Made by a program: the position numbers and the translations under genes. Positions 25,628 to 50,170 of a stretch of DNA of 55,105 nt are shown here, piece by piece. The stretch's first letter is position 1; every line of letters starts with the position of its first letter. The DNA is from a virus, in UHGV virus genome UHGV-0308106, one strand, 5' to 3'. The notes under the pieces were generated by a model. The model was not told where the DNA came from and did no database searches. It was given only the letters and a program-made list of their open reading frames with translations.

Positions 25628-25648
25628 CTGCATATCTGTACCTTATGC
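25628..25648. repeat. Candidate attL of the satellite
   Basis: CTGCATATCTGTACCTTATGC compared with 38350-38370 TTGCATTCCTGTACCGGATGC: 16 of 21 nt match, with a shared CTGTACC core. Confidence 0.55.
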
Positions 25649-25833
25649 AACTAATATCTATTAATCAGTGCGTTATCGTTCGGAATCATACTGCGTTACT
25701 GGCCTGAACCATAAAAATGACACTCCGAACATGTGCGGATTTATTCGCCGGATTTCGCTTTGATTCGGTACGTGAGGGACTAGAGCGAGAATCATGCGCC
25801 GTTTGCATTACATGGTAGCCAGAGAGGTGTTGA

Positions 25834-27063
25834 ATGATTGTTAGGCCACTAACTAACGTCGAAGTGAAAAGCGCGAAGGCACAGGGCAAGGATTTCAGTT
25901 TGCACGATGGTTTCGGTTTGTTGCTTTACATCACAAGCCGGGGCGGTAAGTCATGGCGTTTTCGGTATGTACACCCGGTAACGAAGAAGAGACAAACCTA
26001 TACCATTGGAAGATACCCGGAGTTTACTTTGTCCGAAGCGAGGGAGGAACGTTCGAAACTGCGCCGTATGGTAGCGCGGGGGATAGATCCGAACGAAGTC
26101 AAAAAAGATACCAGGAATGAACAGCGTAAAATGTACGCGCAGTCATTTCAGGCCGTTGCCGATGAATGGCTAAAAATCAAGATTAAAGAAGGTGCGAGAA
26201 GCAACACGCTTGAATCGCACAATGTGACGTTGAAGCATCTTTCCACGATTTTTAGGCATACCACAGTACATAAAATAAACGCAGCCGATACTATTCAGGC
26301 TTTTAAACCTTTCAGGGAAAGGCCATCAACGCTTACGAAAATGGTTATTACCATCAACGCCATAATGGATTATGCGGTAAATATTGGGGTTATTGAGCAC
26401 AACCCACTATCGAAAATTGGTAAAGCATTCCCGGCTGAAAAAAACGAACCAAGAGCGACTTTACAGAAAGAGCGGTTGCCAGAATTTTTAAGCGCATGGA
26501 ACGAGTTGAGCTTATGGGAGCCATCAAAGCTGGCATTATTATTTCAGATCATTACGATGGTCCGACCTTCGGAAGCTGGCGGCGCTCTCTGGAATGAGAT
26601 TGATTTTGATAATTCAATCTGGCAAATCCCTGCAAGCCGGATGAAAGGAAAGCGCCCCCACGTAGTCCCATTATCGAGCCAGGCTATAAACGTGCTTAAA
26701 GAGGCCGAAAAGTGGAAGCGCTGCGATTATGTTTTCCCCTCATGGCGAAAAGAAAATAAGCCGATCTCACGATGTGCGACTCAGGCCGGAATACACAAAA
26801 CGTCGTTTAAAGGAATGATTGTTCCTCATGGGTTCAGGGCGTTGGCATCTACAGTTTTAAATGACGAGGGGTTCAACCCTGATGTGATTGAGGCTGCACT
26901 CGCTCACAAAAGCGCCGATGCGATTCGAAATGTTTATAACCGTAGCGACTATCTGGAAAAACGCCGGGTTTTAATGCAATGGTGGGGGGACTTTATCGAG
27001 GCCGCAGAGCGTGGAGAGATACTGGAGACCAGCGGCGATAAGGGCTTAAGGCTGGTTGTGTAG
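25834..27063 (+). CDS. int: Satellite tyrosine integrase, P4-type
   Basis: LHDGFGLLLYITSRGGKSWRFRY..., HGFRALAST, LAHKSADAIRNVY. Confidence 0.9.
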   Translation: MIVRPLTNVEVKSAKAQGKDFSLHDGFGLLLYITSRGGKSWRFRYVHPVTKKRQTYTIGRYPEFTLSEAREERSKLRRMVARGIDPNEVKKDTRNEQRKMYAQSFQAVADEWLKIKIKEGARSNTLESHNVTLKHLSTIFRHTTVHKINAADTIQAFKPFRERPSTLTKMVITINAIMDYAVNIGVIEHNPLSKIGKAFPAEKNEPRATLQKERLPEFLSAWNELSLWEPSKLALLFQIITMVRPSEAGGALWNEIDFDNSIWQIPASRMKGKRPHVVPLSSQAINVLKEAEKWKRCDYVFPSWRKENKPISRCATQAGIHKTSFKGMIVPHGFRALASTVLNDEGFNPDVIEAALAHKSADAIRNVYNRSDYLEKRRVLMQWWGDFIEAAERGEILETSGDKGLRLVV

Positions 27064-27104
27064 GGCATATCCATTTTTGGATAATTATGATTTCAAACGG
27101 GAAT

Positions 27105-27130
27105 AGCTGGCTTTAAGCCAGCTTTTTTTA
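27105..27130 (+). terminator. Rho-independent terminator after the satellite int
   Basis: AGCTGGCTT-t-AAGCCAGCT followed by a T-run. Confidence 0.8.
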
Positions 27131-27206
27131 TGCCCAAAGCTAACCGGAATGCGTTTTTTTTTATTCAAATCATATATAATCATATCGAATATATACGGAG
27201 GTTTTT

Positions 27207-27419
27207 ATGTCTATAAGTGGCGGTGATATTCTGCTAAAAGGTGAAGTGAAAGCGCGTTTACGTTATCGCTCAGACTCGTCATTCTACGAGTTTCTAAAAG
27301 ACGAGAAAAACGGCTTTCCAATGCCTTTTAAAGTCGGTGGGCGTAACTGCTGGTATGAAGATGAAGTAGATGCCTGGATAAGTAAACAAAGCGAGAAGCG
27401 CGGGATCTGCACATCATGA
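27207..27419 (+). CDS. alpA: AlpA-family regulator/excisionase-like protein
   Basis: LLKGEVKARL..FPMPFKVGGRNCWYEDEVDAWI. Confidence 0.8.
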   Translation: MSISGGDILLKGEVKARLRYRSDSSFYEFLKDEKNGFPMPFKVGGRNCWYEDEVDAWISKQSEKRGICTS

Positions 27420-27440
27420 ATGTTTGCAGATTTGGGAAAG

Positions 27441-27477
27441 AGGGCTTGCTAACGGCTATCCGGGCAAGCCCTTTTTA
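27441..27477. terminator. Bidirectional terminator
   Basis: AGGGCTTGC...GCAAGCCCT followed by TTTTT. Confidence 0.75.
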
Positions 27478-27558
27478 TTGTCAGTGGTGGGGATCTGTAA
27501 CTTACGGCCACCAGCGCCGGTAATCACCTTCTGGCTGGTGGCTTCACTGGCATGGCTA

Positions 27559-27918
27559 TTACGCTGCCGCATCATCTGAATTGAATTCAATGTGAATTCG
27601 GTCATAAGGCAGCACGATTTTTTCGCCGTCTTTGTCCAGAACGCCGCCGTTAAGCAGTGACTGAACATCGTTATAAACACCGCGAAAATCACGGTTAACA
27701 ATGCGTGATAGTTCGCGGATTGATACGGCTTGCGCTCCCTCCATCGCTTTGATGATCTGCCAGCGGTTAGGGGCAAGCATAGTTTTAGCCAGTTGTTCTA
27801 CAGTGGGAAAAATCAGTTCGGAACCGATGAAATCCCCGTTCATTGCGCGGGAGGCGTCGGACATTGCCACCCGGAAAGCATCATCAACGGTCATTACTCT
27901 GACGGTCAGCACTCGCAT
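27559..27918 (-). CDS. wHTH DNA-binding protein, putative antitoxin (TumA-like)
   Basis: ..RWQIIKAMEGAQAVSIRELSRIVNRDFRGVYNDVQSL.. GGAGG ribosome-binding site. Starts 4 nt after the upstream gene. Confidence 0.7.
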   Translation of the reverse strand: MRVLTVRVMTVDDAFRVAMSDASRAMNGDFIGSELIFPTVEQLAKTMLAPNRWQIIKAMEGAQAVSIRELSRIVNRDFRGVYNDVQSLLNGGVLDKDGEKIVLPYDRIHIEFNSDDAAA

Positions 27919-27922
27919 GGTA

Positions 27923-28204
27923 TTACCTCCTCAACAGGTTTATGTCAGCCTGAAAGCTGGCGATCAGGTTCTCAATGGTGGTGAATGTCACCGGATATTC
28001 CCGATCATGGATGTGTTTGTGGTCGCCTTTGCCACGTTCGTTGTCGTAACGCATGACGCACTCGCCATCTACGATGTAGGCCAGACTGTACTTGTATTGG
28101 TGCTGGCTACCTAAAATTGCCGGGTCTACTTCCAGAATGCGGATCGAGGCGAAAGCGTTATCAGCTATCTGGATACGGCGGTTCATCAACTCAACAGCGG
28201 GCAT
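27923..28204 (-). CDS. DUF6516/TumE-like putative toxin
   Basis: YKYSLAYIVDGECVMRYDNERGKGDHKHI motif, recognised from memory. AAGGAG ribosome-binding site. Confidence 0.6.
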   Translation of the reverse strand: MPAVELMNRRIQIADNAFASIRILEVDPAILGSQHQYKYSLAYIVDGECVMRYDNERGKGDHKHIHDREYPVTFTTIENLIASFQADINLLRR

Positions 28205-28220
28205 TGGCTTATCTCCTTGT

Positions 28221-28270
28221 TGATGTAAATAATAACATCACAAACGAATGATGTAAATGATTACATCATT
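28221..28270. promoter_or_regulatory. Two palindromic operators upstream of the TA-like operon
   Basis: TGATGTAAATAATAACATCA (28221-28240) and AATGATGTAAATGATTACATCATT (28247-28270). Confidence 0.55.
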
Positions 28271-28679
28271 GCGGGTAAGTTACCGATGGCATGAACGGTT
28301 CGCTGCTGGTGGCTCTCGATCTCCTGAAAGCTCAGGATATTGCCGGGCATGATTTTAATCGGCGGACTTTTCGGCCGATTGAATACGGGCAGTTCGCTCC
28401 CTGTGTATCGGCTTCGTTTCTGGATGATTCGCGTTTCGTTTCTGGTGAATTCGCATTCGCAATTTGTCCGCGAAGCCTTATCAGGCCTGATTTGAGCGGT
28501 GCTCTCTCTTTGCGAATTCGCAGTTCCATTTCGCACTTTGATTCGCAGTTTTCAAATGTTCCCATTCCGGGGACACGGACGATTAGACAGGTGTTACAAA
28601 CGTTGGTGGTGAAATATCTTCTTGCGCTGGCGGGCACGGTGTGGTTATGATTATTTCGCACCTCACAAAACGGGTGCCG

Positions 28680-28905
28680 GGCGTGAGAACCCGGATAAGG
28701 TCAAAGGCGACAACAGACGCCTATCGCGTCTTTTTTTTGTCGCAATGTCAGTACCCCCATATGTAGCGGCGCAGATCCGCGCACAGAATCAATGGTGGCT
28801 CTGGCAGGGCAGCTTTCGGGCTGGCCGGTTCCCTTTGACGCCGGTATTCTCACCCCTGTCAGTGTCACCACCCTTTAGAGCGTGAGAACTCAGGTGGTGG
28901 CTCCT
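28680..28905 (+). ncRNA. Candidate c4/CI-like antisense-RNA immunity region upstream of the icd-like gene
   Basis: TTCTCAC (28847-28853) and CACCACC (28866-28872) are complementary to GTGAGAA (28882-28888) and GGTGGTG (28893-28899), which lie just 5' of the icd ribosome-binding site. GCGTGAGAAC occurs twice (28681 and 28880). A terminator hairpin plus T8 lies at 28716-28738. Confidence 0.3.
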
Positions 28906-28931
28906 TAAATTAGTCAAAGGAGATCATCATC

Positions 28932-29129
28932 ATGATGACTATCCCTACCCTCGCTCAAACAAAATTCACCTGGCGCTTTCTCGCGCTGAATCGCCACGAT
29001 AAAAAAGCCAAACCTTGCCGTCTGTCCGTTGAGGCTGCGACCGAACGCGAAGCCCGCCGCATCCTTGCGCCGCACTTTATTTTGTCTCTGGCCGCACGTC
29101 TGCCAGTGCCGGAGGTGCGTCATGTTTAA
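28932..29129 (+). CDS. Icd-like cell-division inhibitor family protein
   Basis: FLALNRHDKKAKPCRLSVEAATEREARRILAPHFILSLAARLPV. AAGGAG ribosome-binding site. Confidence 0.65.
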   Translation: MMTIPTLAQTKFTWRFLALNRHDKKAKPCRLSVEAATEREARRILAPHFILSLAARLPVPEVRHV

Positions 29130-30000
29130 CCTCCAGACACTGACAGCTAAAGCCCGTGAGCTGCGCGGCAACGTCGTTAAAGCGGCGAGCACAAAGGGAA
29201 GTCGCACCATGACTCCTGTCTATGACCGTGACGAGCAGCGCAAGCTACGCGAGCGCATCCAGCAGACACAGCCCGATTGGGTGTTGCTCTGGTGGGATAT
29301 TGCGACCGTAACCGGCTGGCGTACCAGCGACGTTTGCAACCTGCGCTATTCCTGCGTCAATTGGGAAACGGGGCAGGCGACAATTATCGTTGCCAAGCAG
29401 ACCAAAGCCGCCGAAGCGCGGGCAACCCGCAAAGGTATTGAAATTGTGCGCCAGCAGCGCAAGGACGCCGCGCGGCTCGCCGCTGACCATATCGCCTACA
29501 TGAAGTGGGATAGTATCGGTTGTGACGAACTGGCCGCCGATATGAACGACGAGGAACAGGCGATTGTGTTCGGGCTGGTGGCAAAGGCTGACGTCAAGCA
29601 CGACACCAAACAGTTACCGCCCGGCATTATCAAGCGGCTGCGTGACCGTCAGGATCGGAATCTGGTGGAGGACGACCTGGTATTTTCACGCTCTCAAATC
29701 GAAAGTAACCGTTGTCAACGTCTGGAAGGTAGCGTTACTCGCCAAACCATCTGGCGCAAACTTCATGGCGTCATGGCGTGGTTTACCCGTTTCATTAACG
29801 CTAAATTGCGCCTGAGCGCGTACTCAAGCCGAAAAATAGCAGCCTTTAATCTTATGTCCGCAGGTGGCGAACAGGGATTATTGGTGGCTTCTGAAATGCT
29901 GGGGCATAGCAACCCGGCGATAACTCGCACTTACCTTCAATTAGGCAGCAAAGCCGCCGCTATCCAGTCCCGTTTAGCAATGGAGGTGTGCCATGCGTAA
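29122..30000 (+). CDS. Tyrosine-recombinase-fold protein (atypical)
   Basis: TGWRTSD (R), YSSRK in place of HxxR, and LGHSNPAITRTYLQ (H..Y). GGAGGTG ribosome-binding site. Confidence 0.6.
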   Translation: MFNLQTLTAKARELRGNVVKAASTKGSRTMTPVYDRDEQRKLRERIQQTQPDWVLLWWDIATVTGWRTSDVCNLRYSCVNWETGQATIIVAKQTKAAEARATRKGIEIVRQQRKDAARLAADHIAYMKWDSIGCDELAADMNDEEQAIVFGLVAKADVKHDTKQLPPGIIKRLRDRQDRNLVEDDLVFSRSQIESNRCQRLEGSVTRQTIWRKLHGVMAWFTRFINAKLRLSAYSSRKIAAFNLMSAGGEQGLLVASEMLGHSNPAITRTYLQLGSKAAAIQSRLAMEVCHA

Positions 30001-30172
30001 TCTCTTTCATATCACTGGCTACGCCGTCAATAAACGCGGCCTGACAGTCGGTTTTAGCTATCTCATCGACGCCGAGGACGCCATGCAGGCAAAAGTTAAT
30101 GCCATTGCTGAGGCGAAAGACGATGAACTCACCCACGTATCTATTGCCCGTATTCTGGAGGTGGCAGCATGA
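29993..30172 (+). CDS. Hypothetical 59-aa protein
   Basis: Hand-translated, beginning MRNLFHITGYAVNKRG. GGAGG ribosome-binding site. ATGA overlap with the next gene. Confidence 0.55.
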   Translation: MRNLFHITGYAVNKRGLTVGFSYLIDAEDAMQAKVNAIAEAKDDELTHVSIARILEVAA

Positions 30173-30381
30173 GCAAAGTATCCCTGGCCGATTCAACCTG
30201 CCGTATCCAACAGGCGCAGGAAGTCCTGTCTCTCTGGCTTGAGGCGACGAATAAAAACGATAGCGGCACGGCTAAATTAATCGGCGCAATCATTTCCCTT
30301 CTGGATGGTATCCCCGAATTGATGGATTCAGTAGAGGATGAATTGGCTGGCATGGACTTAAAAGCGATGGATAAAGCATGA
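30169..30381 (+). CDS. Hypothetical 70-aa protein
   Basis: Translationally coupled ORF. Confidence 0.6.
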   Translation: MSKVSLADSTCRIQQAQEVLSLWLEATNKNDSGTAKLIGAIISLLDGIPELMDSVEDELAGMDLKAMDKA

Positions 30382-31004
30382 GCAACGTAGAGAAATTCAC
30401 ACCGGGAAATGCCGACTTATTACACGCCGAAGCCACACCGCACGGCGTAAACATCATGACCCGCAATGATGCCGGGATGTATGAGCATGTAGCCATTATC
30501 ACCTATGAGAGCGCTGTAAGCCGTCTGGATGCGGGAGAGTACGACGATACGCCAGATATCGGCTACGCCATTCATTTTGCCGTTGCTGATGGCGGGGCGC
30601 GTGGCTGGTTCGACTTTACCGCGCAGCATGAAGTAACCATGTGGCGCTGGCTGATTGCTGCGACGTTCGTTTCTGAGATGAAGCGCGAAAACGGCACAAC
30701 CTCCGTCACGGAGGCTGACGGCACAACATCGCAGGTGGCGATTTACTCCAATGGTAATGCGGGCATGGTGATTTACCCGTTTGCTGAACGGCTGGCGATG
30801 GCGAACAACATCGAGGGCGCAATGATTGAGCGATACGGCGTCGAACAGGGTACGGAAAAAGCCATTGTGTTTTATCAGGCCATGCTGGATACGGAGCGCG
30901 GCGAGCTTACCCCGTTCGGACGTGAAACGCTGGCAGAGCTACACGATCACTTCATTGCTGATCTGGATGAAAACGGCTGGCCTGAAATGCCAGCGGCGCA
31001 CTGA
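30378..31004 (+). CDS. Hypothetical 208-aa protein
   Basis: Coupled ORF upstream of the primase gene. Confidence 0.65.
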   Translation: MSNVEKFTPGNADLLHAEATPHGVNIMTRNDAGMYEHVAIITYESAVSRLDAGEYDDTPDIGYAIHFAVADGGARGWFDFTAQHEVTMWRWLIAATFVSEMKRENGTTSVTEADGTTSQVAIYSNGNAGMVIYPFAERLAMANNIEGAMIERYGVEQGTEKAIVFYQAMLDTERGELTPFGRETLAELHDHFIADLDENGWPEMPAAH

Positions 31005-31016
31005 GGGAGCGACACA

Positions 31017-33797
31017 ATGCGTAATATCGACCTTATCCGCGAAGTGACCAGCGCCGCAGCAGGGCGCTGGCCTTATGTGCTGGCTGGGTTGTCTATCGAC
31101 GTGCCTGATTCATCGCGCCGCCATTCTCCATGCCCTGCATGTGGTGGAAAAGACCGTTTCAGATTCGACGACAACGGGCGCGGTAGCTTTATCTGCAACC
31201 AGTGTGGCGCTGGTGACGGGCTGGATTTAATCAAGCGGGTTAACAACTGCGACACTACGGAGGCGGCACAGCTTGCCGCTGACGTGCTGGGTATTGATTA
31301 CCGGGCAGCGCAATCCGACCCGGTGGCAGCGAGCCATATAAGGGAGCAACTGGAAGCTGACCGCCAGCAGCGTGAGCAGGAGCGCCAGAAACAGGCAGCA
31401 GGGGACGCAGAGCAGCGAAGGGCTACGTTTGCCCGTCTGTATGCCGGAATGCGCCAGAGTGCCACACAGGGCGAATCTGATTACCTGCAATCAAAAGGGC
31501 TGACCGGGTTTAACTATCCGGTTATGCCTGATGGTTCGTTATTGCTGGAGCTGGTGGACGAATCCGGCGCAGTGGCAGCAGCGCAAACCATTACACCGCA
31601 GGGAGAGAAGCGACTCCTGACAGGTTCAGCAAAGCGCGGGGCATATCACGCCGTAAACGCGCCAGAATCGCCGCAGAGCGTTTTAATTGCCGAGGGGCTG
31701 GCGACGGCCCTTTCAGTTCACCTGATGCGCCCGGACGCGCTGGCAGTGGCAGCAATTGACGCGGGCAACCTGCTACCCGTTGCCGAAGTGATGCGCCGGA
31801 AGTACCCACAGGCACAAATCATCATTGCCGCAGATAACGACCAGATGGGCGAAAGTGACGGAATTAAAGGAGTGAAAGTTAACACTGGCAAGGAGGCCGC
31901 AGAGAAAGCCGCGAAAGCCGTTTCTGGCTGGGTTTCCATGCCACCAGTGGACTATAAAGCGGACTGGAACGACTACCACCAGCAATACGGCCTCGAAGCG
32001 GCCACAGCAGCATTTAACGACTCAATGTATCAACCGGAGGGTAAGAAAGTGGGTGCGACACTGACAGCTATCGACGGCGGCAAGAAAAAACTTGGTATCG
32101 ACGACGATCTGAAACCGCGAGTAGAGAGCCGTGCGGATGGCATTCACTGGATCACCCCGAAAGTGGACAAAGACACAGGAGAAATTATCAATACCGAGGC
32201 GTGGCTATGCTCTCCGCTGGAGATTGCTGGTGCGGGGAGTGATAACGCCAGACAGCGCTTTCTGATCCTGCGTTGGGACGTCCCCGGCAACCGGGGGCAA
32301 GTTACCCGTGCGCTTCCATGGGAGGACATTGGCGACCGTGAGGGATGGCGCACGCTGAAAAACGGCGGTGTCAGTGTGACAACCAAACCATCGTTGCGGG
32401 CAATTCTGGCCGACTGGCTGCAGCGAACTGGTAGCGGCAAGGAATGGCAGATCAGCCACACCACAGGCTGGCACAACGGGGCGTACATCATGCCGGATGG
32501 TGATGTTATTGGTGAGCCAGAGATACCGCTGTTATTCAGTGGTCGGAGTGCGGCGGCTGGTGGCTATACCGTCAGTGGAACGCCGGAAAGCTGGCGTGAT
32601 TCGGTGGCGCGTCTTGCGCTGGGAAACCCGTCAATGATGCTGGGCGTTGCTGCTGCGCTTTCTGCGCCGCTGATCGGGCTTGTTGGCGCTGACGGGTTCG
32701 GCGTGCATCTTTTCGAGCAGTCCAGCGCAGGGAAGACAACCACCGCCAACATTGCCAGCAGTTTATACGGTGAACCGGATGCCTTGCGCCTTACCTGGTA
32801 CGGTACAGCGCTGGGTATCGCCAACGAAGCGGAAGCGCATAACGACAGCCTGTTACCGCTGGATGAAGTGGGGCAGGGCAGTAGCGCCAAAGACGTTGCT
32901 ACGTCTGCTTACACGCTGTTTAACGGTGCCGGAAAGCTACAGGGGGCCAAGGAGGGCGGCAACCGTGAGTTAAAGCGCTGGCGCACCGTGGCGATCAGTA
33001 CCGGGGAAATGGACATTGAGACGTTTCTTTCTGCTGGTGGGCTGAAAGTTAAGGCCGGGCAACTGGTGCGATTGCTTAATTTACCGATGGAGAAATCAGT
33101 AACGCACCATGAGTACCAGAACGGGAAGCAACACGCCGACGCACTCAAAGAGGCTTACCAGACGAACCACGGAGCCGCAGGCCGTGAATGGATTAAATGG
33201 CTTGCAGGCCACCAGCAGGAGGCAAAACAAGCTGTCAGGGCGGCGCAAGAGCGCTGGCGCAGTCTTATCCCCGCTGATTATGGCGAACAGGTTCATCGTG
33301 TCGGTGAGCGGTTCGCCATTCTGGAGGCGGCGCTGGTGCTGGGGATGCCTGTCACTGGTTGGGGGGAGCAGGAAAGTCGGGACGCTATCCAGCATGGCTT
33401 TAATGCTTGGGTAAAAGAGTTTGGCACGGGGAACCGTGAGCATAAGCAGATCATCGAGCAGGCAGAGGCGTTTCTTAATGCCTACGGCATGAGCCGTTTC
33501 GCGCCGTTCCCGTATAGCCCGGCTGACATGCCGATCCGGGATTTAGCCGGATACCGTCAGAAAGGTGAGCATGACGAAAGCCCCGTAGTGTTCTACACCT
33601 TTCCGGCTGCGTTCGAAAAGGAGATAGCGCAGGGCTTTAATGCGAAACAGTTTGCCCGTGTGCTGGCCGGGGCTGGGGTACTGAAACCGCCAGCCAGCGG
33701 AAGGGGATATCAGCGTAAATCCCCGCGAATTGATGGACGCCAGATAAACGTTTATGTGCTCCAGCTACGACCCGACGAGATAGAGGGCGAAGAATAA
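31017..33797 (+). CDS. Primase-helicase (P4 alpha-like): zinc ribbon, Toprim and P-loop helicase
   Basis: CPACGGKDRFRFDD..CNQCG; LIAEGLATALS..AADND; Walker A SSAGKTT. Confidence 0.9.
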   Translation: MRNIDLIREVTSAAAGRWPYVLAGLSIDVPDSSRRHSPCPACGGKDRFRFDDNGRGSFICNQCGAGDGLDLIKRVNNCDTTEAAQLAADVLGIDYRAAQSDPVAASHIREQLEADRQQREQERQKQAAGDAEQRRATFARLYAGMRQSATQGESDYLQSKGLTGFNYPVMPDGSLLLELVDESGAVAAAQTITPQGEKRLLTGSAKRGAYHAVNAPESPQSVLIAEGLATALSVHLMRPDALAVAAIDAGNLLPVAEVMRRKYPQAQIIIAADNDQMGESDGIKGVKVNTGKEAAEKAAKAVSGWVSMPPVDYKADWNDYHQQYGLEAATAAFNDSMYQPEGKKVGATLTAIDGGKKKLGIDDDLKPRVESRADGIHWITPKVDKDTGEIINTEAWLCSPLEIAGAGSDNARQRFLILRWDVPGNRGQVTRALPWEDIGDREGWRTLKNGGVSVTTKPSLRAILADWLQRTGSGKEWQISHTTGWHNGAYIMPDGDVIGEPEIPLLFSGRSAAAGGYTVSGTPESWRDSVARLALGNPSMMLGVAAALSAPLIGLVGADGFGVHLFEQSSAGKTTTANIASSLYGEPDALRLTWYGTALGIANEAEAHNDSLLPLDEVGQGSSAKDVATSAYTLFNGAGKLQGAKEGGNRELKRWRTVAISTGEMDIETFLSAGGLKVKAGQLVRLLNLPMEKSVTHHEYQNGKQHADALKEAYQTNHGAAGREWIKWLAGHQQEAKQAVRAAQERWRSLIPADYGEQVHRVGERFAILEAALVLGMPVTGWGEQESRDAIQHGFNAWVKEFGTGNREHKQIIEQAEAFLNAYGMSRFAPFPYSPADMPIRDLAGYRQKGEHDESPVVFYTFPAAFEKEIAQGFNAKQFARVLAGAGVLKPPASGRGYQRKSPRIDGRQINVYVLQLRPDEIEGEE

Positions 33798-33821
33798 AAC
33801 ACACATACGAGATGTTTTTTT

Positions 33822-34114
33822 GTTGGTTCAGTTGGTTCAGTAACTATTTAATTAAGATAAGTATATGTATTTAATATATTTCTATACCCATAAGTGAACC
33901 AACACTGAACCAACAAATACCCATTTTGAACCAACAAATGCCGCTATTGAACCAACGCCCTTTTCTGGCTGGCCTGTAAATCTTTCCCACTGAACCAACA
34001 CGAAAATAGCGTTTGTTGGTTCAAAACAAGGCTTTGTTGGTTCACTCCTCAAGAAATAATCCTTACAAAACAACAATCTTTACAAATTGAACCAACTGAA
34101 CCAACTGAACCAAC
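33822..34114. repeat. Satellite replication origin: 12 copies of TGAACCAAC plus an AT-rich tract
   Basis: Forward copies at 33895, 33906, 33927, 33948, 33991, 34088, 34097 and 34106. Inverted copies at 33822, 33831, 34015 and 34036. AT-rich tract at 33841-33890. Confidence 0.8.
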
Positions 34115-34221
34115 ATGTTTTTGTTTATCTATAGAGTTTTTTCGGAGAGTAATTACGAATTTGGAGGGGCATCGCCTAAGCGACAGTATGCGGAAACGGC
34201 AACTTTGCGGAGCGGAAAAGA

Positions 34222-34252
34222 AAAAGCCCGCGCTGGAGAGGCGAGGGCTTTT
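34222..34252 (+). terminator. Rho-independent terminator
   Basis: AAAGCCC...GGGCTTT followed by a T-rich tail. Confidence 0.6.
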
Positions 34253-34397
34253 GTTAACCATGTTTATGCAATCACACAATGGTGGATCACCGTCATAGTA
34301 CCACGTCGATTTATCATTTCAATGTACGCAATGATGTTTACTAATATTGCAATTTATGCAATGATCAGAATTTAAACAACGCAAAAGGTTATGAACA

Positions 34398-34961
34398 ATG
34401 AAACAGATAACCAATGTTAATCTGGAAAGTGATAACGCTGGTGGTACAGTCGAGGTGACTTACTCCGATGATACGTTCGAAAGGCTGACCTGTTCGCTGC
34501 CTGTGGCTCTCGTCATTGCGAACCTTGCAACGACGCTTAAGCAGGAACGTGCAACACGCATTGCAACCGGCGACCGCCTGCGCCGGATGTATACCCGCGA
34601 TAGTGACATGATTACCCGCAGCGGCAGCGGCGCTTCTACGACCTCCACCGCGCCAACGTCAATGGACGCTGAATTTATGCGCCTGGTACGCGCTGTAGCA
34701 CCAAAGTATGACAACGCCCTTCCTGATACCGATCCTCGCCTTGTTGCGCTTGATGTGCTGCGTTACGCACCCGCTGAGGCATTCAGTGCGGTACACCCGA
34801 CCCCGCTATCAGAGATTCAGCTTGATCAGGCTATCGACGTTCTGGAACAGGTTGGCGACTACATGCGAGTTAACAACGTTTCACCGAAGATTCTCACCAC
34901 AGGCGACGCCATTCGCAGCATTAACACCGACAACGCCAGTTTCTGGCATCGCACGAAGTAA
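34398..34961 (+). CDS. Satellite protein ending in a helper-scaffold-like tail (candidate alternative scaffold / capsid-size redirector)
   Basis: The C-terminus TTGDAIRSINTDNASFWHRTK parallels the helper scaffold TTGDAQRP..SLNKQNADFWSNRKG. Confidence 0.7.
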   Translation: MKQITNVNLESDNAGGTVEVTYSDDTFERLTCSLPVALVIANLATTLKQERATRIATGDRLRRMYTRDSDMITRSGSGASTTSTAPTSMDAEFMRLVRAVAPKYDNALPDTDPRLVALDVLRYAPAEAFSAVHPTPLSEIQLDQAIDVLEQVGDYMRVNNVSPKILTTGDAIRSINTDNASFWHRTK

Positions 34962-34973
34962 GGAGCAATGAGC

Positions 34974-35162
34974 ATGGCTATTTATGACCCGAAATTAGCA
35001 GCAGGAAACCCGCAAAGCGCCGGGCGTAAACTCTTTGGCCGTGAACAGGCCGAGCAATTGCGGATGCGTAACAACTTCAACAACGAATGCCGCAATCTGG
35101 AAAAAGTCAACGAAGCGAATGCAAAGTTCTGGAGTGAACAGGATGAAAAAGCCAAACGTTAA
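34974..35162 (+). CDS. Small protein carrying a second scaffold-tail-like motif
   Basis: ..LEKVNEANAKFWSEQDEKAKR. An AAGGAG lies 9 nt before the ATG at 34974. Confidence 0.55.
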   Translation: MAIYDPKLAAGNPQSAGRKLFGREQAEQLRMRNNFNNECRNLEKVNEANAKFWSEQDEKAKR

Positions 35163-35310
35163 GCCGGTATTACTCTCTGGCGACCAGTTCGCCGCAATCT
35201 GCAAGATCCAGGAGCGCGAACGCCAGCGCTCCGATATTGGCGTAGCGCCGTCTGTCCATCAAATTGCCCGTGGGCTGGTGGCGAAAGCGCTGGCATCAAT
35301 TCAGGAATAA
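35143..35310 (+). CDS. Hypothetical 55-aa protein, possibly a small DNA-binding protein
   Basis: MKKPNVKPVLLSGDQFAAICKIQERER..SVHQIARGLVAKAL. The RHH-like reading is speculative. Confidence 0.45.
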   Translation: MKKPNVKPVLLSGDQFAAICKIQERERQRSDIGVAPSVHQIARGLVAKALASIQE

Positions 35311-35315
35311 CGACT

Positions 35316-36383
35316 ATGTCATATAACTGGATGCGCCATTTCGAGCTACAGCTCATCGATGAGAATGGCAAAGGAATTAGCCTTAGTGATTTCAAAGTTA
35401 CCTTTGATATAGAGCGTAACGATAACAAATGGCCAGCTGTTGCGACGGTCAAGATCTACAACCTTTCACCAACTACTCAGAACCGTATTATGCAACGTGA
35501 GTTTGCCAAAATTGTGTTGATAGCGGGGTATGATGGTCGTGCGCAGGATGTAAGGGCAAGTGATGTGGGGATTGCACGTGAAATATCAGCAAGCGAAGTG
35601 GGCCAGGCTAACGGCGCAAACTACGGAGTCATTTTCAGCGGTGATATCCGCTTCACTGTGACCGGAAAAGATAACCCTGTCGATTCATGGGTACAGGTGC
35701 AGGCTTGTGACTCTGTGGAGGCGTTTACCAGCGCATTTATCAACACCACTATCAGCAAAGGCTACACCACAGAAGATATTTATGTTGAGCTTATGAAAAG
35801 GCTGGAACCTTACGGCATTTCTCGCGGTATTGTTCCTGAATTCCCGGCAACGGTATTTCCTCGCGGTCGAGCCCTCTTTGGCTATGTCCATAACTATCTC
35901 GATGAAGTGGCCGCGCAGTGCAAAGCCACTTGGCAATTCAACTATGGAAAAGTCGATATTGTTCCCAGAGACAAGGCCACTCATGAAGCTGTGGTTCTCA
36001 ACGCTAATACCGGGCTTATCGGTATGCCTCAGCAGACCATCGGTGCGGGTGTGAATGTCAAATGCCTGATTAACTCACGGATTCACCTGAACGGGCTTAT
36101 CCAACTGGATCAGGCTTCGGTATATCGTAGCGCCTTATCTGCGGATCAAATTGCCCAAGCTGGTGGGCCAATTTCGGTGGAAAGCCAAAACGGAAACCTT
36201 GTCACTACTGGATTAACGCAGAGTCCGGCGAGCATTGCTACCGATGGTATCTATAAGGTTCGGTATATCAGTTACACGGGCGACACGCGCGGTCAAGCGT
36301 GGTATATGGATCTGGCGTGTGAGGCTCGCGGGAATTCTGATTTATTTTCAAGTTCATTTATGAATAAGCAGAGTGAAGAATGA
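35316..36383 (+). CDS. Baseplate hub protein, satellite paralog of 47472-48536
   Basis: Colinear over its full length with the helper protein (MSYNWMRHFELQL.. against MSLNWMRHFELQL..). Roughly 60% identical by eye. Confidence 0.8.
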   Translation: MSYNWMRHFELQLIDENGKGISLSDFKVTFDIERNDNKWPAVATVKIYNLSPTTQNRIMQREFAKIVLIAGYDGRAQDVRASDVGIAREISASEVGQANGANYGVIFSGDIRFTVTGKDNPVDSWVQVQACDSVEAFTSAFINTTISKGYTTEDIYVELMKRLEPYGISRGIVPEFPATVFPRGRALFGYVHNYLDEVAAQCKATWQFNYGKVDIVPRDKATHEAVVLNANTGLIGMPQQTIGAGVNVKCLINSRIHLNGLIQLDQASVYRSALSADQIAQAGGPISVESQNGNLVTTGLTQSPASIATDGIYKVRYISYTGDTRGQAWYMDLACEARGNSDLFSSSFMNKQSEE

Positions 36384-36724
36384 AGAAGATTATTTTACTG
36401 ATTGGTTTATTGGGCGCATCTGGAAGTCATGCTGCGCAGGTTATTACCATGCAGTGCGGAAACTTTCGCTTTGAGATGATAGAAAACTCGATGGCGAGAA
36501 TTAATGGTGAGTATGTAACATCTCAGAAAATTACAGAGTTCGGACAGAACGGGGCAAAAGTAGAAATGACGCTTATGCCTGCCAGCGATGGGAATCTGTA
36601 TGGGTTTGAATACATCCATCCTGACGGTAGCAAAAAGCGCTGGCTGAATGTTGAGCTTATCCGCACCAATATGAATCAGGCGCGGATCATTGGCTCGTTT
36701 GATTGTAAGCGCGTGAAGGGGTAA
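36380..36724 (+). CDS. Secreted small protein, satellite paralog of 48549-48893
   Basis: Signal peptide ending SHA/AQ. Conserved QCGxF near the mature N-terminus and DC(K/R)(R/K)VK at the C-terminus. Confidence 0.7.
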   Translation: MKKIILLIGLLGASGSHAAQVITMQCGNFRFEMIENSMARINGEYVTSQKITEFGQNGAKVEMTLMPASDGNLYGFEYIHPDGSKKRWLNVELIRTNMNQARIIGSFDCKRVKG

Positions 36725-36732
36725 GGGGAATC

Positions 36733-37395
36733 ATGCCATTCATTCGACCCGCAAATGAGCAGGATGTAACACAGCTTGTTCAGGACAATGCTAAAGCATC
36801 TGTAACCAATGCGTTACCTGGCATTATTCGTTCGTTCGATCCCGAAACTGTCACCTGCGATGTTGATATAGCCATTACGGCAAGAATGACGAAGGCTGGC
36901 ACAATGGGTGAAGATTTCCAGTATGAGTCCGTCCGCTATCCGATTCTTAACGATTTGCCTGTGGTTTTTCCGCGCGGGGGCGGAGTTACGCTTACTTTCC
37001 CGGTTAAAGATGGTGATGAATGCCTCATCGTATTCTCTTCGCGTTCGATTGATTTCTGGTGGCAGAACGGCGGTGTGCAGGAGCGAGCTGATGGGCGTAT
37101 TTTAGATCTGTCTGATGCGTTCGTTATTCCTGGCCCCCAATCACAGGTAAAGAAGATATCCAATATCAGTACCAACGCTGCGCAGCTGCGTACAGATGAT
37201 GGAGCGGCATTTGTAGAGGTGTCCGCTGGTGGAGCCATTACTATTACCAGCTCTCAAATCACCCTTAACGGGCCCGTGCAGGTAAACGGAACGATCACTT
37301 CCACTGGCGACCAAACGGCCAACGGTATCAGCCAGATTAACCATACCCACGGCGGCGTACAATCAGGCGGCAGCAACACAGGAAAACCACAATGA
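36733..37395 (+). CDS. Central tail spike (Gp138-N / gpV-like), satellite paralog of 49430-50170
   Basis: PGIIRSFDPETVTC..FPRGGG.TLTFPVK.GDECL..DFWWQ.GGVQ, and an apex reading HTHGGVQSGG. Confidence 0.8.
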   Translation: MPFIRPANEQDVTQLVQDNAKASVTNALPGIIRSFDPETVTCDVDIAITARMTKAGTMGEDFQYESVRYPILNDLPVVFPRGGGVTLTFPVKDGDECLIVFSSRSIDFWWQNGGVQERADGRILDLSDAFVIPGPQSQVKKISNISTNAAQLRTDDGAAFVEVSAGGAITITSSQITLNGPVQVNGTITSTGDQTANGISQINHTHGGVQSGGSNTGKPQ

Positions 37396-37571
37396 GCAAT
37401 ATTGAAAAACTGAAACCAGAAGAAAGCGGATCCAGCCAGAATGGTAAGGTTCGTACCTGGCTGGATGATATCAACGGGCAGCCGGAACCAGATGGTATTG
37501 GCAGCTTCGGTGAGAGTGCGATCTGCGAAGAATCACGCACAGCGGAAACCATGCGAAATAACGTAGGGTGA
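37392..37571 (+). CDS. Hypothetical acidic 59-aa protein
   Basis: Hand-translated, beginning MSNIEKLKPEESGSSQNGKV. ATGA overlap with the spike stop. Confidence 0.45.
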   Translation: MSNIEKLKPEESGSSQNGKVRTWLDDINGQPEPDGIGSFGESAICEESRTAETMRNNVG

Positions 37572-37598
37572 CGGTCAGATGACGTGATCTGTAACTTT

Positions 37599-37640
37599 AA
37601 GTAGCGGTGCAGGGGCAGAACTCAGCACGCTACTTTTATT
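37599..37640 (+). terminator. Hairpin plus T-rich tail before the satellite terS
   Basis: AAGTAGCG...CGCTACTT followed by TTATTTT. Confidence 0.5.
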
Positions 37641-37661
37641 TTCTTTGTCAAAAGGTGAACA

Positions 37662-38135
37662 ATGGCGGCATTACCAACAATGGCTAAGGTTATGATTATT
37701 CAATCATTAGCTTGCTACGAACCCCCTTCCAGAATCGTTGAGCTTGTAAAACAAGATTTTGGCATCGTCGTTACCCGGCAGCAGATATCGGCCTACAACC
37801 CTGAAAATACAATGGCAAAAAATCTTAGCCAAAAATGGGTAGAACTCTTTAATCACACTCGCGCCCGCTTCCAGAGTGAAATATCCGAGATCCCTATCGC
37901 TAACAAAGCGTACCGGCTGCGTATGCTCGATCGCATGGCTAACCGTGCAGAGGCAATCAAGAATTACGCATTAACAGCGCAGCTTATTGAACAGGCCGCG
38001 AAAGAGTGCGGGGACGCTTACACCAACAAATTAAAGGTTGAAACAACGGGTAAAGATGGTGGTCCGATCAGAACGGAAACAACGAACTTAACCGCCGAAG
38101 AAGCCGGGGAGGCATACCGCAAATTTATGGGATAA
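37662..38135 (+). CDS. terS: Terminase small subunit (DUF2280-type), satellite paralog
   Basis: Same length (157 aa) as the helper TerS. The C-terminal half is close to identical (LTAQLIEQAAKE.GDAYTNKLKVE.TGKDGGPI.TETTNLTA) and the N-terminal part is diverged. Confidence 0.8.
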   Translation: MAALPTMAKVMIIQSLACYEPPSRIVELVKQDFGIVVTRQQISAYNPENTMAKNLSQKWVELFNHTRARFQSEISEIPIANKAYRLRMLDRMANRAEAIKNYALTAQLIEQAAKECGDAYTNKLKVETTGKDGGPIRTETTNLTAEEAGEAYRKFMG

Positions 38136-38349
38136 CCACCAGCGCCGTGACACGTCACACGCAAAAATAGCACCGCCCATTAATGGGCTGGTGGCACAGC
38201 TTGCATATTGAAATTCCCTGTAAATCTTACAGATCTGGTATTGAGTAACTTACCCCATTCAGCGCCATACATCACAGAGCAGCCTATGGACTACACACAA
38301 AATCAGGCTGCAAATAAATCCTTATATTTCAGTTGATTAAATAATAGCC

Positions 38350-38370
38350 TTGCATTCCTGTACCGGATGC
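38350..38370. repeat. Candidate attR of the satellite
   Basis: Partner of 25628-25648. It overlaps the resumed reading frame of the cement gene. Confidence 0.55.
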
Positions 38371-38849
38371 CTGTTGGCATTGCCGGGGCTATCTCTCGCC
38401 CGCAGGACTTAACCGTCGAACCGGTGATCCTTAAATCCGCTAACGCCTTCGCTGCCTATGGTCTGGCTGGCAAATATGACGCTGACGGCTTTTTCGTGCC
38501 GCTGGCGGACGGTGACACCGCCGACAAGGTGAAGGGGATCTACGTTCGTCCGTATCCGACCACATCGCAGCCAGACATGGTTCGCCAGGTGGGGACGGAT
38601 AAGAACTTCCCGGGTGACGCCATGAAGCGTGGCTACATGACCGTTAATCTCGGTTCTGATTTTGATGCCAGCACCATCAAAAAAGGCGACCCGGTATACG
38701 TTGTCGTCTCCACTGATGAATCCATAAAAGTGCCGCTGGGCGGCTTCATGTCCACGTCCGTCAGTGGCAAAAACGTGGCGCTGACCAACGCCGAATTCAC
38801 AGGGGCCGGTGACGCTAACGGCAATGTAGAAATCTCCTGGAAGATTTAA
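38367..38849 (+). CDS. Capsid cement/decoration protein, with its native 5' end apparently displaced by the insertion
   Basis: Lies between the scaffold and the major capsid gene. There is no SD before the ATG at 38367. The frame upstream reads AFLYR, matching MTAYLY.. at 25624. Confidence 0.7.
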   Translation: MPVGIAGAISRPQDLTVEPVILKSANAFAAYGLAGKYDADGFFVPLADGDTADKVKGIYVRPYPTTSQPDMVRQVGTDKNFPGDAMKRGYMTVNLGSDFDASTIKKGDPVYVVVSTDESIKVPLGGFMSTSVSGKNVALTNAEFTGAGDANGNVEISWKI

Positions 38850-44115: not shown

Positions 44116-44303
44116 CCTTCAACAGCCTGCCGGGCGGTGAAGACTTTATTCTTCGTCCGGCGCTTGCCTTCCATATTGACCAGAAAGACCTTAACAGCGG
44201 TGCGGTAGACCTCTGCCGTATCGCGCTTCTCAATGACTACCTCGACATGCGCGAGGATAACGACGCCCGGGTAGATAAATGGAGAGCGGCCAATGAGCGG
44301 TAA
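43690..44303 (+). CDS. Tail assembly chaperone, -1 frameshift-extended product
   Basis: Slippery run AAATTTTTTG at 44061-44070. The -1 frame is open from 44001 to 44303 and has no start codon before the slippery run. Confidence 0.6.
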
Positions 44304-47471: not shown

Positions 47472-48536
47472 ATGTCTCTTAACTGGATGCGCCATTTTGA
47501 GTTGCAGCTGTTGGACCAGAACGGGCAGGGTATTTCCCTGTCTGATTTTAAGGTCACGTTCCAGATCGAGTGGGCAGATACACGCTGGCCGCGCGTGGCA
47601 AACGTGAAAATTTACAACCTTTCGACCGATACCACGAACAAGATACTGGGGCAGGAGTTTGCAAAAATTCGCATCATTGCCGGGTATGACGGTATTGCGC
47701 CGGATGTTGATGCGAGCCAGGTTGGTGTCGCCCGGGAGATTTCACCAGACCAGGTAGGGCAGGTGAACGGTCAGAACTACGGCCTGATATTTGACGGTGA
47801 TATTCGCTTCACCGTCACCGGGAAGGACAACATCACCGATTCCTGGGTGCTGATTCAGGCCATCAGTAACCACGAAGCGTTCCTCTACGCGACTACCATC
47901 ACCACGCTTGCCGCTGGCTATACCGTTGCGGATCTGCACCGGGCGACGATGCAGGATTTCAACGCGTTCGGCGTGACACAGGGCATTACCGGCGATTTTC
48001 CTGATACCGTGTTTCCTCGTGGCCGCGCGATTTACTCATCCAGCCGCAACGTGATGGATAATATTGCTGCGCAGTGCAAAGCGACATGGCAACTGGTGGA
48101 TGGTCAGGTCCAGATGGTGCCGGAGGATAAATATATTCACGAAGCCATTGTGTTGAATGCCAATACTGGCCTGATCGGTATGCCGCAACAAACGATGGGC
48201 GGCGGAGTAAACGTGCGGTGCCTGATAAACCCAAACATCCGTATTAATGGTCTTATCCAGCTCGATCAGGCTTCGGTGTACCGCGCCACGCTCGGCAATA
48301 GCGAAATAGCACAGTCGCCCGGGCGTATCACCGAAACAGAAGAGAACGGCAACCGTGTGCTGACCGGCACGACGTCACAGGCTGCCAGCATTGCGACGGA
48401 TGGCGTTTATATCGTCAAAGCTATCGACTATACTGGCGACACCAGAGGTCAGGCGTGGTACATGGATTTGATGTGTTTTGCGCGTGGCGCTCGTGATCTT
48501 TATAGCCCGAAAGCAATGCAAGGGACGACGAATTAG
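47472..48536 (+). CDS. Baseplate hub protein, helper copy
   Basis: Paralog of 35316-36383. Confidence 0.8.
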   Translation: MSLNWMRHFELQLLDQNGQGISLSDFKVTFQIEWADTRWPRVANVKIYNLSTDTTNKILGQEFAKIRIIAGYDGIAPDVDASQVGVAREISPDQVGQVNGQNYGLIFDGDIRFTVTGKDNITDSWVLIQAISNHEAFLYATTITTLAAGYTVADLHRATMQDFNAFGVTQGITGDFPDTVFPRGRAIYSSSRNVMDNIAAQCKATWQLVDGQVQMVPEDKYIHEAIVLNANTGLIGMPQQTMGGGVNVRCLINPNIRINGLIQLDQASVYRATLGNSEIAQSPGRITETEENGNRVLTGTTSQAASIATDGVYIVKAIDYTGDTRGQAWYMDLMCFARGARDLYSPKAMQGTTN

Positions 48537-48548
48537 TGAGGTGGGGCC

Positions 48549-48893
48549 GTGAGACATTTACTTTGCACTGTTACCGTGTTCGCGGTGCTTATATCAGCAC
48601 CCGCTTTTGCGGATCAGCAATGTGGTGATTTTAAAATCCATTGGGCAGATGATGGCTTAGCCAGAATCAATGGCGCAAAGCCAGAAATGCAAAAAATCAC
48701 CTTCCTGAAAAACAAAGGCGATTATAACAATATCAAGATGGATTGGCGTATGGCTACCGATCAGCCTGGAAGATGGGTTGGTCTTGAGTACATCAATCGA
48801 AACGGCAAAGCCATTCTCAACGCACAGTGGTTGCAAGCCAGCATGGATTCGCCGCGTCAGTATGCAACATACGACTGCCGAAAAGTAAAATAG
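48549..48893 (+). CDS. Secreted small protein, helper copy (GTG start)
   Basis: Signal peptide ending AFA/DQ. Conserved Cys pair. GAGGTGG ribosome-binding site. Confidence 0.7.
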   Translation: MRHLLCTVTVFAVLISAPAFADQQCGDFKIHWADDGLARINGAKPEMQKITFLKNKGDYNNIKMDWRMATDQPGRWVGLEYINRNGKAILNAQWLQASMDSPRQYATYDCRKVK

Positions 48894-48911
48894 CCCGCCA
48901 GATAGGCGGGC
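48893..48911. terminator. Hairpin terminator shared by convergent genes
   Basis: GCCCGCC-agata-GGCGGGC. The tail on the minus strand is T-rich. Confidence 0.6.
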
Positions 48912-48916
48912 ATGCG

Positions 48917-49207
48917 TCAAAAATATTGAGCTTTAATTATAATAAACACAATAATTACGAACAGGATGTTTCTAATTATTTTTTGCTTATGAGTAAGTTG
49001 TTTTTTTTCTGTCGATTTCCCGGGAGAGTAAAGGTTAGTGGTATGCGACAGCCCCGTGCCGGGAAGGCCATTTGTCATCTTTACGCCTTTTTTCCCGATG
49101 TTAATGGTGGAACCTTTACCACCAATTGAAGTGCTTACTCCGCTTTTACTAATGTTGATCGCGAGTCCGGGCGCAATCCGGATTCTTTTACGAAATCTAA
49201 ATCCCAT
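48917..49207 (-). CDS. DUF4236-domain protein with a C-terminal TM helix (antisense moron)
   Basis: MGFRFRKRIRIAPGLAINISKSGVSTSIGGKG..GLPGTGLS. The tail reads ILFVIIVFIII. Confidence 0.75.
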   Translation of the reverse strand: MGFRFRKRIRIAPGLAINISKSGVSTSIGGKGSTINIGKKGVKMTNGLPGTGLSHTTNLYSPGKSTEKKQLTHKQKIIRNILFVIIVFIIIKAQYF

Positions 49208-49394: not shown

Positions 49395-49418
49395 AAACCA
49401 GCTTCGGCTGGTTTTTTT
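49395..49418 (+). terminator. Rho-independent terminator just before the spike gene
   Basis: AAACCAGC-ttcg-GCTGGTTT followed by TTTT. Confidence 0.75.
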
Positions 49419-49429
49419 ATGGGGGTTTT

Positions 49430-50170
49430 ATGCCAATTCCAACTCAATCACAGATCGGCGGTGAGCAGCAGACCGCGCAGGCCATTGCCGATTCGGTGTC
49501 GACCCAGATGCGCGTAGCGATGCCCGGCATCATTCAGTCGTTCGATCCTGAGACTGTTACCTGCACAGTAGAGGTGGCGCTACGCGGTATTGTTGGCGAT
49601 GGATCCACCGAATTAAAACCGCTGGTGGATGTGCCGGTCATCTTCCCGCGCGGCGGCGGTTGCACGCTGACCTTTCCGGTAAAAGAAGGCGACGAGTGCC
49701 TCCTGATTTTTGCTGACCGTTGCATCGATTTTTGGTGGCAGAGCGGCGGCGTTCAGGAGACCGTCGACCCGCGCCAGCATGACTTATCTGATGCGTTCGC
49801 CATCGTTGGCCCGCAGTCGCAAGCACGGAAAATCAGCGGTATCAGTACCAGCGCCGCGCAGCTGCGAACCGATGATGGTGCGGCGTTTGTAGAAGTCGCC
49901 GCAGGACATAACATCACCATTAAAACACCGGGCCAGCTTACAGCTACGGCTGAAGGTGGAACGACAATCACATCCCCGACTATCACGCTGAACGGCAACG
50001 TAACGATTAATGGCAACTTGTCTCAGGGAATGGGCGAAAGCGGCGGTACTGCGACGATGCTTGGGCCGGTGACGGTAACGAATGACGTAACAGCTTCTGG
50101 TATCAGTGTCGCCACGCATAAACATGGCGGAGTACAGACTGGCGGGGGAACTACCGGAGGGCCGCAATAA
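49430..50170 (+). CDS. Central tail spike (Gp138-N / gpV-like), helper copy
   Basis: Same N-terminal core as 36733-37395. Longer beta-helix-like C-terminus with an apex reading HKHGGVQTGG. Confidence 0.85.
   Translation: MPIPTQSQIGGEQQTAQAIADSVSTQMRVAMPGIIQSFDPETVTCTVEVALRGIVGDGSTELKPLVDVPVIFPRGGGCTLTFPVKEGDECLLIFADRCIDFWWQSGGVQETVDPRQHDLSDAFAIVGPQSQARKISGISTSAAQLRTDDGAAFVEVAAGHNITIKTPGQLTATAEGGTTITSPTITLNGNVTINGNLSQGMGESGGTATMLGPVTVTNDVTASGISVATHKHGGVQTGGGTTGGPQ

Follow-up and report, generated by a model that had tools for sequence, protein, structure and literature searches.

What does a small secreted protein do inside a baseplate operon, and why would one viral genome carry two of them? 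These questions are raised by UHGV virus genome UHGV-0308106, of which a stretch of 55,105 nucleotides (the window) was analysed at its full length. IMG/VR lists the same DNA as contig IMGVR_UViG_3300045988_080056. Two genes in the window encode 114-residue proteins, called minis here, and each stands between a baseplate hub gene and a central spike gene, one in a satellite embedded in a helper prophage and the other in the helper itself. We report that both mini genes are real, conserved and accessory, and that an accessory function located in the cell envelope is very likely for their products. Superinfection exclusion is put forward, tentatively, as the function that these products may serve.

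Two homologous genes encode exported proteins

The satellite copy (ORF A, for open reading frame) occupies positions 36380..36724 of the plus strand, with an ATG start. It comprises a signal peptide (36380-36433) and a mature part, predicted to form a beta-barrel (36434-36721), with cysteines at mature positions 8 and 91. Using tblastn, we found a single paralogue of this gene in the whole window, the helper-prophage copy (ORF B) at 48549..48893 on the plus strand, which has a GTG start and again encodes a signal peptide (48549-48611) and a mature part (48612-48890). The two minis are 31% identical (E 2e-16), and both match the hidden Markov model (HMM) of family phrog_3443, the satellite mini over residues 9-113 (E 6.3e-40) and the helper mini over residues 2-114 (E 6.9e-46). 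Because of this mutual identity and these shared matches, the minis are homologous proteins and not the products of chance reading frames.

In both N-termini, a K/R n-region and a hydrophobic core precede an AxA-type site (SHA/AQ in the satellite, AFA/DQ in the helper). Moreover, both proteins share the motif QCG.F soon after this site and DC(K/R)(R/K)VK near the C-terminus. The original prediction of a 114-residue secreted protein in both cassettes, with a cysteine at each end of the mature chain, is borne out: the reading frames, the signal-peptide-like N-termini and both predicted cleavage sites are as described, and an alignment of 45 members shows both cysteines, three glycines and two asparagines to be invariant. 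With a hydrophobic core of KD at least 2.2 upstream of the first cysteine taken as the sign of export, a signal-like N-terminus is present in 115 of the 118 family reading frames recovered from related loci, the three exceptions being a fusion to a lipoprotein and a single degenerate duplicate that was recovered in two copies. There is thus a strong case from sequence that each mini is a Sec-exported periplasmic protein of about 95 residues after the predicted cleavage.

The start of the satellite mini overlaps the stop of the upstream 355-residue hub gene (ATGA), and the spike gene begins 8 nt past the mini stop. The helper mini starts 12 nt past the hub stop and is preceded, 5 nt upstream, by a GAGGTG Shine-Dalgarno sequence. 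Both minis thus look translationally coupled to the hub or co-transcribed with it. The GC content of the two genes (0.446 and 0.455; the hub and spike of the helper have 0.537 and 0.572) is moron-like. The ratio of nonsynonymous to synonymous substitution rates (dN/dS) is ~0.12 for the mini in satellites and in phages alike, compared with ~0.09 for hubs and ~0.2 for spikes; this value, together with the presence of the mini in 19 of 19 hub-seeded satellites, identifies a functional gene.

A catalogued but uncharacterised protein family

The family phrog_3443, of which both minis are members, is a phage-borne family of the PHROGs collection that lacks functional annotation, so membership says nothing about mechanism. 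Neither mini matches any Pfam, NCBIfam or PADLOC family, and a search of the family HMM against PDB sequences returned nothing significant. A profile search of 5.8 billion clusters gave 176 matches, all of ~110-120 residues, annotated as 'hypothetical', 'secreted protein' or 'adhesin'; wherever an organism was named, it belonged to the Enterobacterales. When 1.84 billion representatives were searched exhaustively with the HMM, just 73 clusters at 50% identity were found. GenBank has 20 phage records with relatives of the mini and IMG/VR has 386 such stretches, and the helper-type region is found in 42 of 5,426 complete E. coli genomes. The giant repeat proteins P0180, P0183, P0184 and P0193 were rejected as members, their weak HMM matches being spurious (Flg_new or SH3 repeats).

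In Salmonella phage SEN34, the RefSeq entry SEN34_20 is only 78 residues long. Its open frame continues upstream (L001:4929-5270), and this extension encodes a signal peptide and the first conserved cysteine (…KALAILIVSFMSFGASASGYTAYCGPY…), so the RefSeq start appears to have been placed too late. It should be noted that the SEN34 paper contains no virion proteomics. The literature searches made for this analysis found nothing on the family or on satellites bearing hub or spike genes. The family is therefore catalogued already, yet uncharacterised. Even if the function proposed below proved wrong, it would stand as a well-defined, strongly conserved secreted phage protein that is labelled 'hypothetical' and sometimes truncated by annotation.

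The mini accompanies the hub and is dispensable for the baseplate

We surveyed about 190 related loci, seeded with the mini or with the hub. In every mini-seeded locus, the mini lies directly 3' of the hub, often with an overlap of 1-4 nt, and the spike lies downstream. The gap between mini and spike is ~8-10 nt in satellites and 35-2008 nt in phages, where it holds unrelated accessory genes. Among hub-seeded loci, the mini is present in 54 of 58 phages, besides all of the satellites. Three of the four IMG/VR phages that lack it have another gene at this position, for a lipoprotein in two and for a signal-peptide protein in one. Since mini-less phages carry such proteins there, the slot behind the hub has repeatedly been filled by non-homologous envelope-targeted proteins. 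Phages yong1 and EKP1 also lack the mini, despite tails that are 72-76% identical in DNA over the stretch from spike to baseplate-J.

Several loci hold more than one mini. In Serratia aquatilis (L013:5389-10277), six intact minis, one broken copy and an insertion sequence with an IS256-like transposase lie between hub and spike. In Pseudescherichia vulneris (L011:629-2849), four copies are interleaved with 3'-end fragments of the hub, and the units of a third array (L088:4997-6276) include such fragments as well; the repeat units of these last two loci point to cassette accretion. The last two-thirds of the array copies are near-identical; the differences lie mainly in the hairpin that follows the first cysteine, where the column entropy of the family also peaks. 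Such tandem arrays of variants are what the repertoires of immunity or exclusion genes typically look like.

Other members are tethered or have left the cassette. In L028, P0124 and P0152, the mini domain forms the C-terminal domain of a lipobox protein of 265-296 residues, whose N-terminal domain of ~190 residues has no Pfam match; the Enterobacter bugandensis fusion (L028:5398-6288) is followed by another signal-peptide protein at 6308-6694. Two distant members, P0181 and P0156, stand in the order plug-mini-hub-spike, and the plug-mini-hub order of L197-L199 likewise keeps the adjacency to the hub though the gene order differs. P0167 is a stand-alone chromosomal gene adjoining tsx, and P0145 adjoins fliE on the border of a prophage-like region. 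The distant members, hub-upstream or stand-alone, lie at L197:5001-5330, L198:371-709, L192:5001-5339 and L194:5001-5402. One hub-upstream member sits in a marine metagenome contig.

Taken together, export, dispensability for the baseplate, non-homologous replacement, arrays, lipoprotein tethering and stand-alone chromosomal homologues are our grounds for an accessory role in the envelope. The original prediction had named the minis candidate exclusion or assembly factors. Exclusion is compatible with export and with a baseplate that can do without the protein. Assembly fares worse: baseplates assemble in the cytoplasm, so an exported protein is poorly placed to take part, and close relatives whose tails are homologous lack the mini. 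A part in structure or assembly is unlikely.

The mini varies with the hub and not with the spike

The hub and spike genes of both cassettes are on the plus strand. The satellite hub lies at 35316..36383 (phrog_196, E 5e-82; PF22759, E217_GP41) and the satellite spike at 36733..37395 (PF18352 N-domain, E 1e-37, and GpV Apex); the helper hub lies at 47472..48536 (phrog_196, E 2e-83; PF22759) and the helper spike at 49430..50170 (PF18352, E 1e-41, and Apex). Between satellite and helper, hubs are 63% identical, spikes 51% and minis 31%, the minis being by far the most diverged.

To see which neighbour the mini follows, we compared 90 loci that each hold a hub, a spike and a single mini. Across them, the correlation of mini identity is r = 0.80 with that of the hub and r = 0.65 with that of the spike. 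In a partial Mantel correlation, the association of mini with hub given the spike is 0.61, whereas that of mini with spike given the hub is 0.06. Furthermore, 61 locus pairs combine minis at least 90% identical with spikes at most 70% identical, and no locus pair combines minis at least 90% identical with hubs at most 70% identical. These results lend no support to the claim that the minis diverged in step with their spikes, and a cognate pairing of mini and spike was rejected on the partial correlation and the 61 uncoupled locus pairs.

A sliding window delimits the block that varies together: it runs from the hub, where the correlation peaks at r = 0.83 in the C-terminus, through the mini to about residue 135 of the spike. 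Beyond this point, in the beta-helix and apex of the spike, the correlation falls to ~0.2. The spike is therefore a mosaic whose first ~135 residues, the hub-docking domain, travel with hub and mini while the beta-helix and apex are swapped independently. Locus L027 is an example, with hub at 98%, mini at 96% and spike at 65% identity.

Predicted fold of the mini

AlphaFold2 models based on the family alignment are all-beta for the satellite mini (predicted local distance difference test score, pLDDT, 90.4; predicted template modelling score, pTM, 0.80) and eight-stranded for the helper mini (pLDDT 90.2, pTM 0.79). The models make a strong case for an eight-stranded, up-and-down, avidin-like beta-barrel. 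In these models, the two invariant cysteines sit in the first and last strands, and one disulfide probably staples these strands together. A Foldseek search of PDB and BFVD gave no match at E <= 0.001. In fold comparisons, Cap15 and DUF1842 rank above eight-stranded outer-membrane barrels, and avidins score above MliC/PliC. As modelled, the fold says no more than that the mini is a small, soluble, secreted barrel.

Two more specific readings of the mini were considered and not upheld. The models share the eight-stranded barrel with the avidin family, but identity in structural alignments is at most 11%, and the avidin and streptavidin sequences used exceed the mature mini by ~30 residues. Aligning the family profile with avidin and streptavidin by hhalign gave a probability of just 25% over 34 columns. 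Avidin Trp70 and Trp97, which we take to contact biotin, align to Met and Leu in the satellite mini, and no Trp is invariant in the family. Homology to avidin and biotin binding were rejected on the low profile probability and the unconserved tryptophans. A lysozyme inhibitor of the MliC/PliC type, an idea that came from the cysteine pattern, is compatible with the fold; it was set aside because such proteins score below avidins and the minis have no Pfam MliC match.

Possible functions of the mini

Among envelope functions, blocking the entry of related tails fits best because of the persistent adjacency to the hub, the arrays of variants and the retention in satellites. In the model that we favour, the mini would wait in the periplasm of a cell that harbours the prophage or the satellite and, once an incoming related tail has pierced the outer membrane, would interfere with its tube-tip complex. 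The target would be the hub, with the plug, the spike base or the tape measure emerging through the hub. DNA delivery would thus be blocked, amounting to superinfection exclusion or 'immunity', and specificity would probably reside in the hypervariable beta1-beta2 hairpin just past the first cysteine. The satellite owns a copy of the mini since the hub-mini-spike block was captured whole. This is the best-supported reading of the locus, although we hold its chances to be somewhat short of even.

Several observations weigh against exclusion. The predicted fold is generic, and the minis show no homology to known exclusion or defence proteins (Llp, Sp, Imm and Cor; Pfam, NCBIfam and PADLOC families). 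Classical exclusion needs expression in the lysogen, and this is unsupported because no promoter exceeded chance. A sigma-70-like consensus scan, which is crude and leaves room for other promoters, found 0 sites in 35000-38400 and hence none before the satellite mini; the weak 9/12 site before the helper mini (48406-48434) is no more than expected by chance; and the Serratia array has 8 promoter-like sites against 9.4 expected, no excess over shuffled sequence. Coupling to the hub implies late expression. Moreover, the mini is under purifying, not diversifying, selection overall, and physical linkage alone predicts the co-variation along the hub-mini-spike block, which can be explained in this way.

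The strongest competitor, which we consider possible yet rather unlikely, is a factor for lysogenic conversion or envelope fitness that has nothing to do with phage entry, comparable to Bor or Lom of lambda. Here, a secreted barrel would alter the host envelope or bind a small ligand, and the hub junction would be a hotspot for moron insertion. Such a factor would account for the variety of unrelated envelope-targeted genes in the gap between hub and spike (DUF4236 or Zn-ribbon proteins with transmembrane segments, lipoproteins, signal-peptide proteins), and it agrees with the stand-alone chromosomal homologues, the low GC content and an avidin- or calycin-like fold, typical of ligand binders. 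It leaves unexplained why the mini lies immediately beside the hub, on either side, across distant phages, and why it is kept in every compact satellite cassette. A promoter of its own was not found in the consensus scan, and variant tandem arrays are unexpected for a housekeeping-type fitness factor.

A more elaborate form of exclusion gives satellites an active part, and we regard it as unlikely. In this form, minis would be hub-linked periplasmic gatekeepers with the tube-tip complex of an arriving tail as what they recognise, and satellites would swap those tail parts that enter the periplasm and bring their own gatekeeper. Because satellites must enter helper-carrying cells, a variant of hub and spike, sometimes also of plug, Dit and tape measure, might evade the gatekeeper of the helper; this, too, seems doubtful to us. 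With similarly small probability, the arrays of hub 3' ends and minis could be accumulated immunity repertoires against several tail types.

It is also improbable, and a little more so, that the mini inhibits the muralytic activity of the tail itself, that is, of the lytic transglycosylase (SLT) domain at the tape-measure C-terminus. By analogy with T4 Spackle or with PliC/MliC/Ivy, such a periplasmic inhibitor would shield infected or lysogenic kin from lysis from without. The tape measures of yong1 and EKP1, homologous to that of the helper, are indeed annotated as SLT-domain proteins, and the disulfide between first and last strands presumably resembles that of the MliC/PliC family. However, the missing Pfam MliC match counts against this idea, and so does the fact that most satellites carry hub-mini-spike without a tape measure, which leaves the mini unlinked to the SLT domain.

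Finally, it is highly improbable that the mini helps to assemble the tail or joins the virion late, such as by folding oxidatively in the periplasm and binding the baseplate after lysis: translational coupling, near-universal presence beside the hub, satellites included, and purifying selection as strong as on the hub would suit such a role, but the mini is exported away from the cytoplasm, close relatives dispense with it, and a stoichiometric part would not be expected to come in multi-copy arrays, anchored as a lipoprotein or as a stand-alone chromosomal gene.

The embedded satellite and neighbouring genes

The mini is duplicated in the window because a helper-embedded satellite of 12.7 kb (25643..38350, plus strand) captured a contiguous hub-mini-spike block of late genes. 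Its junctions were mapped by comparison with Citrobacter phage Omnitron (99.5% identity), and its contents were identified by gene families. The helper is a temperate myovirus of the SEN34/Omnitron type. The satellite is flanked by imperfect 14-bp repeats, TGCATATCTGTACC at 25629-25642 and TGCATTCCTGTACC at 38351-38364, which follow the pattern TGCAT(AT/TC)CTGTACC and are a duplication of Omnitron 25277-25290. An exact-repeat search for att sites had found none; the imperfect repeat emerged solely from mapping the junctions onto Omnitron. The site of the satellite lies in the late region of the helper, in the same orientation, between the head protease/scaffold gene (stop at 25619) and a phrog_563 gene (start at 38367).

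The satellite encodes an integrase (25834-27063), a second integrase-like protein (29029-30000) and a P4-type primase (31017-33797). A DUF2280 gene (PF10045, phrog_546; 157 aa) is the third gene pair duplicated between helper and satellite: the satellite copy lies at 37662-38135 and the helper copy at 19876-20349, just upstream of the large terminase. Given this position of the helper copy, we suspect that the protein is small-terminase-like, in which case the copy in the satellite may serve to redirect packaging.

Related satellites (L003-L007 and L036-L055) differ in the tube-tip subset that they carry, which is hub-mini-spike alone, Dit(-plug)-hub-mini-spike, or tape measure-Dit-plug-hub-mini-spike. 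Sheath, tube and outer baseplate genes were seen in none of the satellite-only loci. The minis of co-resident satellites and helpers are just 32-55% identical in seven comparisons.

In the helper, a tape measure, a Dit-like protein and a plug of the Pam3-gp18 type are encoded upstream of hub-mini-spike, and sheath-initiator, baseplate-J and wedge genes lie downstream. By eye, the C-terminus of the tape-measure protein (44293-46560) resembles an SLT region. The variable slot that separates mini and spike in the helper is occupied by a DUF4236 moron on the minus strand (48917..49207; PF14020, E 2e-20; GC 0.39) with a C-terminal hydrophobic tail. A terminator scan found a terminator-like GC-rich hairpin on the minus strand (48893-48911) and a terminator-like hairpin with a T-run on the plus strand (49395-49414), directly before the helper spike start. 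The latter is oddly placed within a late operon, unless it is read through.

Comparison with known systems

Several known exclusion genes lie near tail or penetration genes, and components of the tail tip are what both Ltp and Spackle act on. T4 Spackle, T5 Llp, Cor, TP-J34 Ltp and P22 SieA are, like the mini, small phage-encoded proteins exported to the envelope, and some of them are lipoproteins, as are the fused mini variants. The mini has no sequence relationship, and no specific fold relationship, with any of these five. Known exclusion proteins are expressed early or from the prophage; unlike their genes, the mini is coupled to a late baseplate gene, and no promoter was detected for it by consensus scan. 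Precedents for the proposed function, by analogy only, are TP-J34 Ltp as the prototype cell-surface exclusion lipoprotein (PMC3952083), P22 SieA (PMC10883804) and the HXS system, which blocks DNA entry in the periplasm (PMC13128918).

If exclusion is true, the minis would be an uncharacterised family of periplasmic entry-blockers for contractile-tailed temperate phages of Enterobacterales, in which the beta1-beta2 hairpin would serve as a simple element of specificity and repertoires of many copies occur naturally. Satellites would then also have a functional reason to capture tube-tip genes of the helper, and satellite biology would be tied to superinfection exclusion.

With the periplasmic lysozyme inhibitors PliC/MliC, the mini shares neither a Pfam family nor a structural score as high as that with avidins. 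A likeness of layout is found in contact-dependent inhibition (CDI) and Rhs loci, in which orphan modules of toxin 3' end and immunity gene look like the arrays described above. L011 and L088 likewise repeat units of a hub 3' fragment plus a mini, as orphan cassettes of C-terminal toxin and immunity gene do. The likeness is in architecture only, as the hub is a structural protein without a recognisable toxin domain.

The satellite itself has the layout of the helper-embedded phage-inducible chromosomal islands (PICIs) described by Tommasini et al. (2023, PMC10111431), whose late zone holds captured late genes of helper type. When the full text of that paper was searched by term, neither baseplate nor spike genes came up. 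Shared with the published islands are an integrase and a primase, att repeats, a position inside the helper late region and co-oriented with it, and captured late genes. The sites published for these islands correspond to cognates of late genes of phage lambda, whereas the helper here is a SEN34-like myovirus, and the captured set here is a tube-tip module, in which tape measure, Dit and plug vary and hub, mini and spike follow.

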